A stretch of DNA of 64,000 bases, from assembly GCF_053078305.1 (NCBI RefSeq), contig NZ_CP166879.1. One strand, 5' to 3'. Under the pieces are notes generated by a model. It did no database searches, was not told the DNA's origin, and saw only the letters and a list, made by a program, of their open reading frames with translations. This document shows, piece by piece, positions 6,054-9,258 of the stretch. The translations under genes were made by a program, and so were the position numbers. Positions within the stretch are counted from its first letter, which is position 1, and each line of letters begins with the position of its first letter.

Positions 6054-6476
6054 ATGCGTAATATTCAACAGGTTTTAGAGCGCTGGGGTGGCTGGGCAGC
6101 GAGTGAAGGTGGTAGCGTCTACTTTCCTCCTGTTGCAGCCGGGTTTAAGAATCTGCTACCCGCGACGCAGTCTGGAAGGCTGAAATGCAGTGACAATGAC
6201 GGTCTTATCATCAACTCCGCTATGAGCTGCCTGAAGAAAAAAGATCCGTATCTGTGCACGCTCCTTGAGTGGCATTACGTCCAGGCCATGCCCGTGCGGG
6301 CGATGGGTGAGAAGCTCGGCGTATCTCACACCCACGTTCTGAAGAGGCTTCAGGCGGCAGAGGGATTTATTGACGGTTGCTTAGCCATGCTGGATGTGGT
6401 GCTCGAAATGGATCAGTCGGTTCAGTCAAAGCCTCAGGCTATCAGGACTTTGCGTAGGAGCTGCTCGGCGGCATAA
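6054..6476 (+). CDS. Late-gene antiterminator, Q-like (putative)
   Basis: 140 aa; upstream of lysis cassette; resembles small Q-type antiterminators from recall. Confidence 0.45.
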   Translation: MRNIQQVLERWGGWAASEGGSVYFPPVAAGFKNLLPATQSGRLKCSDNDGLIINSAMSCLKKKDPYLCTLLEWHYVQAMPVRAMGEKLGVSHTHVLKRLQAAEGFIDGCLAMLDVVLEMDQSVQSKPQAIRTLRRSCSAA

Positions 6477-6940: not shown

Positions 6941-7167
6941 TTGCCCCATTCTGGGGAAAAGTTAATAAAACAGGGCTTTCGCTGCGAAAAAACGCTATGC
7001 AGTTTTTGCCCTTTTTTATGCACCTTTTATTCACTCGAATTTCGTCATTCTGGACCACTTAAGTTGATTAAATAGGCCTTTCATCGCAAATCTATTGCGA
7101 GCGGGGATCGTGTGGTTCCTATAACGTACATTATGTTAAATAACTTCCTTTTTTAACAAATTTAACA

Positions 7168-7193
7168 AGGTTCGCTATGGCGAACTTTTTTTT
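7168..7193 (+). terminator. Rho-independent terminator (GTTCGC-TATG-GCGAAC then T8); possible tR'-like terminator ahead of the lysis genes
   Basis: Perfect 6-bp stem and 8 T read directly; tR' role is inference by analogy with lambda. Confidence 0.55.
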
Positions 7194-7294
7194 GTATTCA
7201 GGGCCCACCGAAGGACGGCTCATAACCCAATCCTACGGGCGTATACGCAGGGCCCGCCTTTCAACAACACCCCGTAATGGCGGAGGTGGGAAGT

Positions 7295-7636
7295 ATGAAA
7301 ATGCACAATGCTCCTCATTCCTGGCCTGACTTACTGGAACTCTTACAAAGTTGGTGGCGTGGAGATACGCCGTTGGGCGCAGTGGTTATGTCAATTGTTA
7401 TGGCTGGCTTGCGCATTGCCTATTTTGGCGGTGGCGGCGGCTGGAAACGAAAAACGCTTGAGATTTTGCTCTGTGGTGCTCTGACGCTGACCTTTGCATC
7501 CGCTCTTGAGTATGTTGGATGGCCTAAATCTCTTTCTGTTGCCATTGGTGGTGGTGTTGGGCTGATCGGTGTCGATGCTATTCGTGGGGCTGCAATGCGA
7601 GTAATCGGTAACAAGTTTGGTGGCTCTAAGGAGTAG
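7295..7636 (+). CDS. Holin, class I (three predicted TM segments) with dual-start Met-Lys-Met motif
   Basis: ATG AAA ATG at 7295-7303 after SD GGAGGTGGG; hydrophobic segments; directly upstream of endolysin. Confidence 0.7.
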   Translation: MKMHNAPHSWPDLLELLQSWWRGDTPLGAVVMSIVMAGLRIAYFGGGGGWKRKTLEILLCGALTLTFASALEYVGWPKSLSVAIGGGVGLIGVDAIRGAAMRVIGNKFGGSKE

Positions 7637-7639
7637 TTC

Positions 7640-8116
7640 ATGCAGACACTAAATTCCCAACGTAAAGCTTTCCTGGATATGGTGGCATGGTCAGAAGGAA
7701 CGGATAACGGGCGACAACCGACACGTAATCACGGTTATGACGTTATCGTCGGAGGTGAGTTGTTCACTGATTACTCCGATCACCCTCGCAAACTTGTCAC
7801 GCTAAACCCGAAGCTTAAATCAACAGCCGCAGGCCGGTATCAGCTTCTTTCACGCTGGTGGGATGCCTACCGCAAGCAGCTTGGCCTGAAAGATTTTTCG
7901 CCAGAAAGTCAGGACGCTGTGGCGCTGCAGCAGATTAAAGAGCGTGGCGCTTTACCGATGATTGACCGTGGCGATATTCGTCAGGCAATCGACCGTTGCA
8001 GCAATATCTGGGCGTCGTTACCTGGTGCAGGTTACGGTCAGTATGAACATAAAATCGGTGACCTGATTTCCAGGTTTAAAGATGCTGGTGGGGTGGTAAA
8101 TGAAGCTGACTTATAA
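7640..8116 (+). CDS. R: Endolysin, lambda R-type lytic transglycosylase
   Basis: Near-identical to recalled lambda R N-terminus (QRKAFLDM.AWSEGTDNGRQ.TRNHGYDVIVGGELFTDYSDHPRKLVTLNPKLKST). Confidence 0.9.
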   Translation: MQTLNSQRKAFLDMVAWSEGTDNGRQPTRNHGYDVIVGGELFTDYSDHPRKLVTLNPKLKSTAAGRYQLLSRWWDAYRKQLGLKDFSPESQDAVALQQIKERGALPMIDRGDIRQAIDRCSNIWASLPGAGYGQYEHKIGDLISRFKDAGGVVNEADL

Positions 8117-8624
8117 GATTGTTATCGCGGCATTTTTCTTCTCTGCCTTTGGGGCGCTCGTCTGGTCTGCAAACCATTACCACAGCAAGTATCAGGCAGA
8201 AAAGTTGCGGGCTGATAAAGCGGAAGGTGAAGCTGAATATCAAGGGAAAGTGATAGCTAATCAGGCATTAAACTTCAATCGTTTTAACCAGATAGCAGAA
8301 AAAGCAAGCCGATTAAATTCTCTGGTCGACATCGGTCACGAGAAGACAGTCATCAAATACCGTGAGGTTCTGCTCCGTGAAAAGAACTGTGATTTCCCTG
8401 TTCCTGTTGATATTGCTGTCGGGGTGCTCAACTACGCGAACCGTTTACGCGCCAGCGCATTGCACGCCGATTCCGGGGACATTGACTCAGCCGGTGATCG
8501 TGCCACTACCACCAGAACGTTGACATATTGCCAGGCTGTTCTGTGGATTAACCCACTGTTGGCAGCCATCGAGAAGGCGAATAACCAGTTGGCTGGTGTC
8601 CGACAAATAGAACAGTCCCGGTAA
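8100..8624 (+). CDS. Rz-like i-spanin
   Basis: N-terminal TM segment; follows and overlaps endolysin; contains embedded +1-frame lipoprotein ORF. Confidence 0.65.
   Translation: MKLTYKIVIAAFFFSAFGALVWSANHYHSKYQAEKLRADKAEGEAEYQGKVIANQALNFNRFNQIAEKASRLNSLVDIGHEKTVIKYREVLLREKNCDFPVPVDIAVGVLNYANRLRASALHADSGDIDSAGDRATTTRTLTYCQAVLWINPLLAAIEKANNQLAGVRQIEQSR
8377..8523 (+). CDS. Rz1-like o-spanin lipoprotein embedded in the +1 frame of Rz
   Basis: Manual translation (GTG start assumed) KRTVISLFLLILLSGC... with lipobox LSGC and proline-rich tail PVIVPLPPER; start codon uncertain. Confidence 0.5.
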   Translation: MKRTVISLFLLILLSGCSTTRTVYAPAHCTPIPGTLTQPVIVPLPPER

Positions 8625-8685
8625 TAGCATTACAGAAGCTCTTCCAGGAGGGGCTTCGATAATGACCTGATAACTGGAAAATAAA

Positions 8686-9258
8686 ATGACTAAGAAGCTG
8701 AAAGCAAAACACGAGGTGTTTTGTCGCGAGTTTCTTGTCGATCTGAATGCTACACAAGCAGCTATTCGCGCAGGCTACGTCTCCAGGCGAGCACATGTTA
8801 CGGGGGCTGAACTATACGGTAAACCTGAGATACGCGCCCGTATTAACGAGCTAAAGCAGGAGCGTATTGATCAACTGGGCATTGATGCGAATTATGTGCT
8901 GATGCGACTGGTTGAGATCGACAGGCTCGATGTGGCTGACATCCTGGAGGACGATTTAAGTATTAAGCCTCTGTCTGCGTGGCCGGAATCGTGGCGTCGG
9001 TACCTGAGTGGATTTAACCTCGCTGAAATGTTTGAGGGGCGAGGAGATGACAGAGAAATGGTCGGGATCCTTAAAAAGATTAAGTGGCCTGATAAGGTTA
9101 AAAACCTTGAGTTGCTTGGGCGTCATGTTTCTGTTCAGGCGTTTAAAGACAACGTCAAAAATGAAGTGACTGGCGCTGATGGAGGACCCGTCAGAACAGA
9201 AATTACCAACTTAACGCCGGAGCAGGCTGCAGAAGCGTATAAAAAAATGATGGGCTAA
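8686..9258 (+). CDS. Terminase small subunit (P27-type)
   Basis: 190 aa; position before large terminase; family from recall. Confidence 0.75.

Follow-up and report, generated by a model that had tools for sequence, protein, structure and literature searches.

The last unit of the Q-dependent S-R-Rz/Rz1 lysis cassette of an E. coli prophage lies in the window analysed here, a continuous stretch of 64,000 nucleotides. That lambdoid lysis cassettes have embedded o-spanin genes is textbook knowledge. In this case an i-spanin gene, Rz, sits directly downstream of a lambda-type holin and endolysin, its start overlapping the end of R by 17 nt, and a smaller gene, Rz1, lies inside Rz. The main features of the cassette are as follows.

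6054..6476, + strand: late-gene antiterminator Q, upstream of the lysis cassette (Pfam PF06530, E 5e-42)
7295..7636, + strand: holin S, lambda family (Pfam PF05106, E 1e-27; TIGR01594, E 6e-40)
7640..8116, + strand: endolysin R, lambda R-like (PHROG 90 endolysin, E 2e-63; RefSeq 'glycoside hydrolase family 24/104 protein')
8100..8624, + strand: Rz i-spanin gene, 174 aa (PHROG 214 'Rz-like spanin', E 8e-58)
8106..8168, + strand: residues 3-23 or so of Rz, a predicted N-terminal transmembrane segment (Kyte-Doolittle; preceded by K2 and K6)

A terminator-like hairpin and T-run occupy 7167-7198, between Q and S. The holin gene has a Met-Lys-Met dual-start motif, with a further in-frame ATG upstream at 7277. 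The lysis cassette is 99.2% identical to the cassettes of four sequenced E. coli phages, and a tRNA scan found no tRNA genes in the window.

Rz matched no Pfam or NCBIfam family. With a Kyte-Doolittle window of 19 residues, its hydropathy peaks at 1.91 over residues 3-21; past residue 30 the maximum is 1.08. From this profile we infer a single N-terminal transmembrane segment followed by a periplasmic C-terminal domain. An AlphaFold2 model built on a 13-sequence alignment is of low confidence (mean pLDDT 57, pTM 0.28) and gives a weak indication that Rz is mostly helical, with a disordered stretch at residues 122-142.

An o-spanin reading frame inside Rz

A preliminary description of this DNA, made from its letters alone, placed in the +1 frame of Rz a 48-residue lipoprotein precursor with a lipobox and a proline-rich mature region. 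These are the features found there.

8364..8367, + strand: Shine-Dalgarno-like GAGG, 9-10 nt upstream of the Rz1 start
8377..8523, + strand: Rz1-type o-spanin gene, GTG start, 48 codons, TGA at 8521-8523, +1 frame of Rz
8377..8424, + strand: predicted signal peptide of Rz1, residues 1-16 (MKRTVISLFLLILLSG), by the lipoprotein-signal rule
8416..8427, + strand: Rz1 lipobox L-S-G-C, with the codon of the predicted lipid-modified Cys17 at 8425-8427
8425..8520, + strand: predicted mature o-spanin, 32 aa (CSTTRTVYAPAHCTPIPGTLTQPVIVPLPPER), homologous to the first half of LysC-type o-spanins

The coordinates given in that description are exact from start to stop. The sequence and the ORF list agree on the frame (8377-8100 = 277; 277 mod 3 = 1). 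The peptide reads MKRTVISLFLLILLSGCSTTRTVYAPAHCTPIPGTLTQPVIVPLPPER, and the precursor divides at the lipid-bearing cysteine into MKRTVISLFLLILLSGC and STTRTVYAPAHCTPIPGTLTQPVIVPLPPER. Its translation contains the LSGC motif with Cys17 and a Ser at +2, a non-Asp residue compatible with outer-membrane sorting; the published lipobox consensus is [LVI][ASTVI][GAS]C (PMC6139136). The N-region is charged through K2 and R3 and is followed by an 11-residue hydrophobic core. The mature part is indeed rich in proline (7 of 32 residues, 22%) and has a second cysteine at position 29. The frame was said to be too short for the ORF track, and RefSeq likewise leaves Rz1 out, calling Rz a 'hypothetical protein' (30 rows sampled across 123 matching E. 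coli genomes).

Is this frame a gene, or did it open by chance and yield no product? Its length does not help to decide. In 20,000 synonymous resamplings of Rz, 41% had a +1 ORF of at least 48 codons, and we therefore dropped ORF length as evidence for Rz1. A GTG start and the missing RefSeq call would also suit a chance opening. But a lipoprotein-like +1 ORF arose in just 0.6% of the same resamplings, and the comparative data speak strongly against chance. All 53 aligned relatives (Rz identity 55-99%) have a 48-codon ORF from the position equivalent to GTG 8377; the start codon is GTG in 52 of them and ATG in one (L078). The same 53 share a lipobox of the form L-[SVTA]-[GS]-C (variants LSGC, LVGC, LTGC, LAGC and LVSC), Ser at +2 and the position of the stop, TGA or TAA. 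The lipoprotein-signal rule is satisfied by 27 of 27 distinct family precursors. The +1 ORF, start, lipobox, stop position and 32-aa mature peptide are retained in 80 of 80 fetched related viral loci, and the Rz1 features are kept as well in phages HK225, ZF40, yong2, BZS1 and PSTCR3, where Rz identity is 32-63% and thus goes as low as 32-39%. The preliminary description would have been undone by homologous Rz genes in which the +1 ORF or the lipobox was not conserved; both are conserved in every relative examined.

Selection on the second frame is visible in the nucleotides themselves. Diversity at Rz third positions is 0.41 and 0.39 in the two flanks and collapses to 0.093 in the overlap (Mann-Whitney p = 4e-14). 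There Rz position 1, equivalent to Rz1 position 3, varies most (0.232). The nucleotide variation in the overlap tracks the Rz1 frame, not the Rz frame. The two proteins are constrained in complementary places: across the DNA of the Rz1 signal peptide Rz varies less, and across Rz1 residues 29-48 Rz1 does. In the latter part the mean amino acid diversity is 0.083 for Rz1 and 0.357 for the Rz residues read from that DNA. The same pattern of complementary constraint in the DNA common to lambda Rz and Rz1 has been reported genetically by Cahill et al. (PMC5295617). On this comparative evidence the Rz1 gene is real and under selection. The chance-ORF reading, to which we assign next to no probability, is effectively refuted.

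Where does Rz1 begin? The first start codon of the open +1 frame in the ORF list is GTG 8362, giving 53 aa. Exactly this version is deposited as GenBank BAI31869.1, 'putative lipoprotein Rz1 precursor', and the 53-aa form passes the lipoprotein-signal rule too. Yet GTG 8362 is not conserved, being GGG in most relatives, whereas position 8377 is a start codon in all 53. No Shine-Dalgarno sequence precedes 8362; rather, 8362-8367 is itself the site for 8377, which reads GGGAG in most relatives and keeps its position in all aligned ones. The comparison with embedded Rz1 genes of related phages that the preliminary description had proposed gives the same answer, since both the start at 8377 and the length of 48 aa match the curated call in HK225 and mEp237. 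We consider initiation at GTG 8362 distinctly unlikely and number Rz1 from 8377. The spacing of 9-10 nt between the Shine-Dalgarno-like site and this GTG start is rather long. The mature lipopeptide is identical with either start.

Membership in the HK225 family

Phages HK225, ZF40 and mEp237 were curated in 2018 as an embedded spanin family (Kongari et al., PMC6139136), for which the threshold is at least 40% identity over at least 40% of the length. Rz exceeds this against HK225 Rz (62.6% identity over 80% of the query, residues 36-174) and against mEp237 Rz (58.8% over 84%); against ZF40 Rz identity is 31.7%. Rz1 is identical to HK225 Rz1 at 35 of 48 residues, also above the threshold, with the same size and position. 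In the tables of that survey the HK225 and mEp237 o-spanins are 48 aa long, 32 aa when mature, and lie at 0.53-0.81 of the i-spanin length (PMC6139136). The +1 frame, the 48-aa precursor, the 32-aa mature part and the span of 0.53-0.81 L are the same here as in HK225, mEp237 and ZF40. Rz1 also matches PHROG 456 'Rz-like spanin' (E 8.5e-7). NCBIfam matches for Rz1 and Rz were set aside as signal-peptide noise under the cut-offs.

The architecture agrees with the definition of an embedded two-component spanin given by Kongari et al. (2018): 8377-8523 lies wholly within 8100-8624 in another frame, Rz1 has a lipobox with a sorting-compatible +2 residue, the i-spanin has a predicted N-terminal transmembrane segment, and the neighbours are a holin and an endolysin. 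All the architectural features are thus present, supporting that identity. As judged from these comparisons the Rz/Rz1 pair is a member of the HK225/mEp237/ZF40 family and not of the lambda sequence families. The Rz1 gene was already known, being named in GenBank and belonging to a curated family, and an embedded Rz1 is in itself a routine finding. What it exposes is an annotation gap: a model or rule for HK225-type Rz/Rz1 would mend many records.

The N-terminal 35 or so residues of HK225 Rz, including the transmembrane segment, differ from those of Rz here, which resemble SfV Rz; the Rz gene is therefore mosaic. Rz1 stays with the C-terminal two-thirds of Rz even where unrelated sequence replaces the Rz N-terminus.

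Comparison with lambda

The preliminary description also held that the gene matches the embedded spanin architecture of lambda. This stands for the layout and fails for the sequence family. As in lambda, the o-spanin lies wholly in the i-spanin, in the +1 frame and at the same place in an S-R-Rz cassette. Lambda likewise has an i-spanin with an N-terminal transmembrane segment and an o-spanin with a lipobox, a non-Asp +2 residue and a proline-rich mature part. But neither Rz1 nor Rz has any match at E <= 1 to the lambda families PF06085 (Rz1) and PF03245 (Rz), while lambda Rz1 (72.2 bits, E 3e-20) and lambda Rz (183.2 bits, E 3e-54) served as positive controls. Membership in the lambda families is excluded by this test, and in BLASTP the similarity to the lambda pair is confined to the signal peptide and the transmembrane segment.

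There are differences of detail too. The mature Rz1 has 32 aa here and 40-41 aa in lambda, and ends at 0.81 L here against about 0.87 L in lambda; the penta-proline run occurs only in lambda. The periplasmic cysteines of Rz are at 97 and 144 here and at 99 and 152 in lambda, with Cys29 of Rz1 common to both. For HK225, the tables of Kongari et al. (PMC6139136) give Rz without a predicted coiled coil and an o-spanin with some beta-strand. Given these predictions and the lack of the penta-proline run, the lambda mechanism may not carry over in detail. A further difference from lambda is that the C-terminus of Rz here appears to be derived from an o-spanin.

An o-spanin domain probably divided between two frames

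The evidence for this last statement is the match of both gene products to one family of o-spanins, LysC. Besides the mature Rz1, the element concerned is

8511..8621, + strand: Rz residues 138-174, its last 37 (...TLTYCQAVLWINPLLAAIEKANNQLAGVRQIEQSR), homologous to the second half of LysC-type o-spanins

Against Pfam LysC (PF23793; cut-off 27 bits) Rz1 aligns to profile positions 1-33 with 16.6 bits, and Rz residues 136-173 align to positions 31-68 with 13.5 bits. When Rz1 is joined to Rz 138/139-174, the score is 41.6-41.9 bits in one stretch over LysC positions 1-68. For comparison, SfV Rz1 scores 63.5 bits. Rz1 alone falls below the cut-off and is homologous to the family without being a complete PF23793 member; its match is limited to positions 1-33, so that it lacks the C-terminal half of the domain.

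An HMM built from nine overlapped-type o-spanins only, with P0032 left out, gives the same picture. Residues 17-47 of Rz1 align to its positions 1-31 with 33 bits, and the C-terminus of Rz aligns to positions 31-67 with 39.4 bits. Six embedded-type Rz C-termini score 24-39 bits and two Rz1 peptides 33-35 bits, whereas about 170 shuffled, reversed or unrelated sequences score at most 3.6 bits. In BLASTP, SfV Rz1 gives a single alignment with the joined sequence that runs across the junction (41% over 68 aa, E 5e-13), and SfV Rz aligns to Rz 1-126 (E 1e-14). SfV Rz just passes the cut-off of DUF2570 (PF10828; 28.0 bits against 26.6) and Rz here has no match to it, so the DUF2570 relationship is visible by pairwise comparison only. 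With the joined sequence as query, tblastn found 21 phage records in which it is encoded in two frames and 25 in which it is encoded in one.

The one-frame relatives are overlapped DUF2570/LysC pairs (PF10828 + PF23793), found in SfV, SfIV, Yersinia vB_YenM phages, Klebsiella 3LV2017 and RCIP0114; the Rz1 proteins of SfV and SfIV form part of the 'Mu' o-spanin family of Kongari et al. The pair here has in common with them the +1 frame, the position of the lipobox and the motifs C-x-x-TRTVYVP and L-T-Y...LL.A...AGIR.IE. In the overlapped phages a mature o-spanin of 70-75 aa extends beyond the end of an i-spanin of about 130 aa. Here, by contrast, the o-spanin ends after 32 aa, its C-terminal domain is in the Rz frame, and the old i-spanin stop is absent. 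Judged by these alignments, the HK225-type embedded family is homologous to the overlapped DUF2570/LysC pairs of SfV-, Mu- and P2-like phages.

This bears on what Rz1 does. Small phage lipoproteins can have roles other than lysis, such as superinfection exclusion (Cor-like) or serum resistance (Bor-like), and Rz1 has weak matches at the level of the signal peptide to Cor and other small lipoproteins (E 0.16-0.17). The Cor-type matches, however, are restricted to the signal peptide, while the mature Rz1 is homologous to LysC-family o-spanins, and the gene accompanies the C-terminal two-thirds of Rz even when the N-terminus of Rz is unrelated. We regard such a role as extremely unlikely.

Might the shortened Rz1 frame instead be a non-functional remnant of the frameshift, with the enlarged Rz alone, or some other factor, disrupting the outer membrane? 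Rz now bears the former C-terminal domain of the o-spanin, and a mature peptide of 32 aa is the shortest embedded o-spanin among the lengths examined in the Kongari table (PMC6139136). A remnant should nevertheless decay, and the stops and the losses of start or lipobox to be expected occur in 0 of 80 loci; the stronger conservation of Rz1 residues 29-48 over the Rz residues from the same DNA is contrary to it as well. Moreover, Rz itself lacks a lipid anchor and therefore cannot reach the outer membrane. A remnant strikes us as very improbable, and we hold to a working o-spanin gene.

In the 2018 survey, the HK225 family is treated as unrelated to any overlapped family and the embedded and overlapped layouts are judged to stem from unrelated pathways (PMC6139136). 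The frameshift link proposed here contradicts that view. Our literature search for earlier descriptions of a link between the layouts returned just this survey, most subscription journals being outside its coverage; within the searchable papers, the split of LysC between Rz1 and the Rz C-terminus appears unreported. If true, embedded and overlapped spanin families would for the first time have a documented connection, and it would mean that the C-terminal domain of the o-spanin works on either subunit.

The junction and the direction of the proposed frameshift

The frame changes at a single, still recognisable site.

8518..8525, + strand: frame junction; Rz1 reads CGT TGA (Arg, stop) and Rz reads (AC)G TTG ACA (Thr-Leu-Thr)

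The junction has one base fewer than CCG CTG ACC of SfV; a -1 shift of frame at the stop codon of Rz1 separates the embedded layout from the overlapped one. Throughout the family, the bases of this stop (TGA or TAA) belong, in the Rz frame, to the Leu/Ile and Thr codons of an L/I-T-Y motif. We think that the HK225-type pair is probably a split LysC system, in which a -1 frameshift moved the o-spanin domain of about 35 residues onto the i-spanin in one step.

The change may have run the other way, with the embedded layout ancestral in the lineage and the overlapped LysC-type pairs produced by +1 frameshifts. One insertion is indeed enough: in the E. coli record CP157170.1 a 1-nt insertion (A, after the base equivalent to 8490) makes a locus like that of the window an overlapped pair, the product of which is named LysC by NCBI. 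The locus L095 is a second case in point. The pair there is overlapped; the i-spanin shares 56% identity with Rz of PSTCR3, an embedded-type protein (E 5e-49), and the o-spanin matches both PSTCR3 Rz1 (E 5e-21) and the C-terminus of PSTCR3 Rz (E 4e-6). The PSTCR3 junction has 13 nt fewer than that of L095. Crude neighbour-joining trees place L095 with the embedded PSTCR3 in two of three segments (i-spanin core and first half of the o-spanin); in the third, the C-terminal domain, it lies apart from the embedded group, a pattern that suggests recombination or reversal. With the segments in conflict over L095, the trees do not settle which way the frameshift went.

Against an ancestral embedded layout, the deeper relatives are all overlapped (SfV/SfIV, Yersinia vB_YenM, Klebsiella P2-like 3LV2017, RCIP0114 and L096), and all of them match Pfam LysC in a single frame. 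In the embedded members, moreover, the stop is always in the same place, and this suggests one derived event. We think the reverse direction unlikely as the origin of the family. The change between the layouts nonetheless appears reversible, and L095 is perhaps a revertant or a recombinant.

Six further sequences (P0019, P0033, P0034, P0038, P0055 and P0068) were considered as forms that read through the junction and were rejected, since their frame switch lies away from the family junction; they are probably recent mutations or assembly indels. The closest single-frame relative, P0032 (61%), is without a contig on record. A word-indexed protein search with the joined sequence returned mostly fragments and the CP157170.1 variant, and no ancestral forms.

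A model for the origin and action of the pair

We consider it very likely that 8377-8523 is a functional Rz1-type o-spanin gene within Rz and that it derives by frameshift from an overlapped pair. In our model, a net -1 frameshift at the present Rz1 stop would have cut the o-spanin after its proline-rich half and, by the same event, fused its C-terminal domain of about 35 residues to the end of the i-spanin. Together with the loss of the old i-spanin stop, this would have converted the overlapped layout to an embedded one and shifted where one subunit ends and the other begins. The model offers a testable example of an embedded pair arising from an overlapped one by a single frameshift, and it bears on the evolution of overlapping genes. 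It would further imply that a spanin domain can switch subunit without loss of the system, which bears on where the interface between i-spanin and o-spanin lies.

The action of the pair is modelled on lambda. Our search found no experiments on the HK225-type spanin family; the spanins cited as tested are those of lambda, T7, P2, T4 and T1. Rz1 would be translated from its own GTG and Shine-Dalgarno site, exported, lipid-modified at Cys17 and cleaved by signal peptidase II, while its N-terminal transmembrane segment would hold Rz in the inner membrane. Rz and Rz1 would then form a complex that bridges the periplasm. After removal of the cell wall by holin and endolysin, the complex would disrupt the outer membrane; fusion with the inner membrane is the most likely means. 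A conceptual parallel only is the unimolecular spanin of phage T1, gp11, in which one polypeptide has a lipobox at its N-terminus and a transmembrane segment at its C-terminus; spanins can thus differ in how the lipid anchor and the inner-membrane anchor are shared out among chains (PMC6139136).

The cysteine in the LTYC motif of Rz is found in the embedded group only and not in the overlapped pairs. A disulfide between this residue, Cys144, and Cys29 of Rz1 might re-join the two halves of the domain, a speculative idea. Cys29 is absent from two relatives (L027 and L029).

An Rz1 gene embedded in Rz

According to the preliminary description, the i-spanin gene Rz contains in its +1 frame a lipoprotein of the Rz1 type, with a lipobox and a proline-rich mature region. 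All of these elements are found at the coordinates given, and the embedded o-spanin is confirmed and correctly interpreted.

8100-8624, + strand: Rz, 174 codons
8364-8367, + strand: Shine-Dalgarno-like GAGG, 9 nt 5' of the Rz1 start
8377-8523, + strand: Rz1 ORF, GTG at 8377, then 47 sense codons and TGA at 8521-8523

The Rz1 ORF lies in the +1 frame relative to Rz (offset 277 nt). Translated from 8377, the peptide is MKRTVISLFLLILLSGCSTTRTVYAPAHCTPIPGTLTQPVIVPLPPER. Two basic residues and an 11-residue hydrophobic core precede the lipobox L-S-G-C (Cys17), which has Ser at +2; the mature part of 32 residues includes 7 prolines and a second cysteine. A mechanical ORF list opened this frame at GTG 8362, giving 53 amino acids. 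We place the start at GTG 8377, since most relatives have GGG at position 8362.

The gene is already catalogued, and the embedded Rz1 as such is already known. The exact 53-residue translation is deposited in GenBank as BAI31869.1 under the name 'putative lipoprotein Rz1 precursor', from E. coli O103:H2 12009. Rz falls into PHROG 214 (E 8e-58) and Rz1 into PHROG 456 (E 8.5e-7), both named 'Rz-like spanin'. Kongari et al. (PMC6139136) group HK225, ZF40 and mEp237 as an embedded family. According to the supplementary tables of that survey, the HK225 and mEp237 o-spanins have 48 residues, 32 of them mature, and lie in the +1 frame between 0.53 and 0.81 of the length of the i-spanin; in size, mature length, frame and relative position the window Rz1 is identical. 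The window Rz is 62.6% identical to that of HK225, and 35 of 48 Rz1 residues are shared. Neither protein falls in the lambda sequence families, whereas lambda's own proteins match these strongly in the same search.

What the follow-up adds here is an annotation gap. In the 30 RefSeq records of E. coli genomes matching 8100-8624 that were listed across the full match ranking, Rz is a 'hypothetical protein' and Rz1 is absent (NC_013353.1 is an example), and none of the Pfam and NCBIfam models matches the window Rz. The four near-identical phage records ON470579/582/588/593 call Rz 'endopeptidase Rz' and leave Rz1 unannotated. In Serratia phage vB_SspM_BZS1 (locus L083, 1292-1615), Rz1 is deposited as 107 residues, with a TTG as its start; the lipoprotein signal that is conserved in the family opens about 80 codons further in, which makes this deposited start almost certainly too far upstream. 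Clustered at 90% identity, the 53-residue protein falls together with a 766-residue bird protein (Cyanistes), an Arf-GAP with coiled-coil, ANK repeat and PH domain, presumably a clustering artefact.

Selection on both reading frames

Could such an ORF arise by chance? Of 20,000 synonymous-codon resamplings of Rz, 41% had a +1 ORF 48 or more codons long, and we rejected ORF length as evidence for that reason. A lipoprotein-like signal on the +1 ORF appeared in only 0.6%.

Comparative conservation is the decisive evidence. A scan of viral contigs yielded 80 loci with 55-99% Rz identity. All 53 aligned loci have a +1 ORF of 48 codons from the same GTG (ATG in one, L078), a GGAG-type site 5' of it, a lipobox L-[SVTA]-[GS]-C with Ser at +2, and a stop, TGA or TAA, at a constant position. 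The 32-residue mature peptide is kept in 80 of 80 loci, and Rz1 is also kept in phages HK225, ZF40, yong2, BZS1 and PSTCR3 (Rz identity 32-63%). Loss of the +1 ORF or of the lipobox was seen in no relative examined.

Nucleotide diversity by Rz codon position, computed on 43 distinct sequences
Region: position 1, position 2, position 3
Upstream of overlap: 0.13, 0.08, 0.41
Inside overlap: 0.23, 0.05, 0.09
Downstream of overlap: 0.14, 0.04, 0.39

This pattern shows dual coding: Rz third positions are frozen within the overlap (p = 4e-14), and the wobble signal passes to the Rz1 frame. The Rz protein is the more conserved of the two across the stretch encoding the Rz1 signal peptide, and Rz1 residues 29-48 are far more conserved than Rz from the same DNA (diversity 0.083 vs 0.357). 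Cahill et al. found the same complementary constraint genetically in lambda (PMC5295617).

Probable homology across frames to LysC-type o-spanins

In a Pfam scan, both proteins gave weak matches to the LysC profile (PF23793, 69 positions), below its cut-off of 27 bits: the match of Rz1 covers positions 1-33 with 16.6 bits, that of Rz residues 136-173 positions 31-68 with 13.5 bits. The two matches adjoin each other in the profile and in the DNA. When Rz1 and Rz residues 138/139-174 are read as one chain, this joined sequence matches positions 1-68 in one stretch with 41.6-41.9 bits (E 1e-10).

Phage SfV has an overlapped pair. Its Rz has 130 residues, and its Rz1, a LysC member (63.5 bits), begins inside Rz in the +1 frame and extends 157 nt beyond the Rz end. 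SfV Rz aligns with window Rz 1-126 (E 1e-14), and SfV Rz1 aligns with the joined sequence in a single alignment spanning the junction (41% identity, 68 residues, E 5e-13). At the junction SfV reads, in the Rz1 frame, CCC GAG CCG CTG ACC TAT (P-E-P-L-T-Y); the window reads CCA GAA CG- TTG ACA TAT. With this one base fewer, Rz1 ends with CGT TGA (Arg, stop), and reading goes on in the Rz frame as TTG ACA TAT TGC (L-T-Y-C...). The window also lacks the 9 nt that hold the SfV Rz stop codon.

The same relationship recurs more widely. A tblastn search of 50,697 phage records with the joined mature sequence gave two cleanly separated groups, 21 HK225-type records matched in two frames (57-100% identity) and 25 records matched in one frame (38-41%), the latter being SfV, vB_EcoM-720R4, five Yersinia phages, and Klebsiella phages, one of them P2-like. 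An HMM for which nine overlapped-type o-spanins were the sole input scored 23.6-39.4 bits against six embedded-type Rz proteins, in each case at the C-terminus (HMM positions ~31-67), and 33-35 bits against two Rz1 peptides (positions 1-31); none of about 170 controls (shuffled and reversed Rz, lambda Rz and Rz1, SfV Rz, other window proteins) exceeded 3.6 bits. Homology of Rz1 and the Rz C-terminus to LysC-type o-spanins is very likely.

Likely direction of the proposed frameshift

In all embedded members the Rz1 stop falls within the Rz motif L/I-T-Y, at its Leu/Ile-Thr codons, a common placement that points to a single event. A HMMER search of the full library found single-frame relatives with 44-61% identity. 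One, in locus L095, stands with a holin, a lysozyme, a 118-residue DUF2570 i-spanin and an overlapped LysC o-spanin. Its i-spanin is 56% identical to the embedded-type Rz of PSTCR3 (E 5e-49). Its o-spanin matches two PSTCR3 proteins, Rz1 with the N-half (61%, E 5e-21) and Rz residues 135-169 with the C-half (E 4e-6). At the junction the two differ by 13 nt, a net one-base shift, and the i-spanin stop is present in overlapped L095.

A change from overlapped to embedded, occurring once, is the simplest reading, since the deeper relatives are all overlapped and the embedded members share one junction. We consider this direction likely. The reverse step is easy, as E. coli CP157170.1 (L091, 2212-2737) illustrates. 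It differs from the window Rz by three substitutions and one A inserted after 8490 (8490/8491), which turns the embedded pair into an overlapped one, with Rz cut to 132 residues and a 78-residue Rz1-Rz fusion that NCBI names 'Rz1-like lysis system protein LysC'. The insertion could be genuine or could stem from faulty sequencing. Crude trees place L095 beside PSTCR3 when built on the i-spanin core or the o-spanin N-half and outside the embedded group when built on the C-terminal domain, which suggests recombination or reversal. Several database proteins (P0033, P0034, P0038, P0055, P0068) from HK225-type or ZF40-type loci hop between the two frames at various points, suggesting assembly indel errors or recent frameshifts in a number of assemblies.

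According to the 2018 survey (PMC6139136), the embedded architecture shares no family with either of the two other architectures, and unrelated pathways are the most parsimonious origin of the embedded and overlapped layouts. The literature searched, itself incomplete, yielded no prior description of the link; that it is unreported is only probable. That a frameshift in an overlapped pair of the LysC type gave rise to the embedded pair is well supported and apparently undescribed.

Proposed function of the pair

The two reading frames are conserved and co-selected. The Rz1 +2 residue, Ser, is of the outer-membrane type, and the Rz N-terminus is a hydrophobic anchor. Periplasmic cysteines are conserved: Rz 97 and 144 are nearly invariant, and Rz1 Cys29 is absent in two relatives. 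By analogy with lambda (PMC5295617, PMC6139136), Rz1 would be lipid-modified, processed and routed to the outer membrane, and Rz would be an inner-membrane protein whose C-terminus faces the periplasm; together they would form a disulfide-stabilised complex spanning the periplasm, fusing the membranes after cell wall removal. If the last 37 Rz residues were once part of the o-spanin, the subunit contact would have to lie between the 32-residue lipopeptide and Rz and would not be the ancestral interface. The cysteine of LTYC occurs only in the embedded group (Gly in SfV, P0032 and L096, Gln in L095); as speculation, it might be bonded to Rz1 Cys29.

The lysis cassette and its prophage

6054-6476: Q antiterminator, upstream of the lysis cassette
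7167-7198, + strand: terminator-like hairpin and T-run, AAGGTTCGC-TATG-GCGAACTTT TTTTTG, between Q and holin
7295-7636: lambda-family holin, Met-Lys-Met start
7640-8116: lambda-R-like endolysin, upstream of Rz

The genes 3' of the cassette encode the small and large terminase subunits, the portal, the capsid and a contractile tail, and host genes, including purL and glyA, begin at about 31 kb; this identifies the window as a prophage in an E. coli-type chromosome. Four sequenced E. coli phages have a cassette with 99.2% identity to this one, and 122 complete E. coli genomes carry the Rz gene at 97-99% identity. Phage genes extend to about 30.5 kb (about 1-30500) and also include a VapE-like primase/helicase, a DUF3383 protein (possibly tail sheath), baseplate J and a tail-fibre assembly protein. 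The host side (31000-64000) also encodes an RpiR-type regulator, an MltF-like transglycosylase, a sensor kinase and a flavohaemoglobin.

The hairpin at 7167-7198 sits where a late-operon terminator read through by Q is expected; a consensus scan did not locate the promoter. Within the holin reading frame an ATG occurs at 7277, followed by GGAGG and then by ATG-AAA-ATG at 7295-7303, the dual-start motif (holin/antiholin) of lambda S. The one near-identical phage record inspected, ON470582.1 (vB_EcoM-689R2), annotates a much shorter holin of 249 nt.

A second hairpin, stable and located at 8635-8657 (GAAGCTCTTC-CAG-GAGGGGCTTC), follows the Rz stop and precedes the small-terminase gene, which starts at 8686. 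Folding of 8618-8690 gives -23.1 kcal/mol (z = -4.6). The hairpin has no T-run 3' of it and recurs 3' of Rz in many mosaic relatives with compensatory changes, for example AAAGCCATTC/GAGTGGCTTT and GCAGGCATTC/GAGTGCCTGC. It could mark the transcript end, stabilise the transcript or serve as a site related to packaging.

The 5' end of Rz (8100-8215, ~35 codons, transmembrane segment included) has about 89% DNA identity to SfV-type phages, and the remainder is of the HK225 type, which indicates a recombination joint inside the spanin gene; many relatives have unrelated N-termini.
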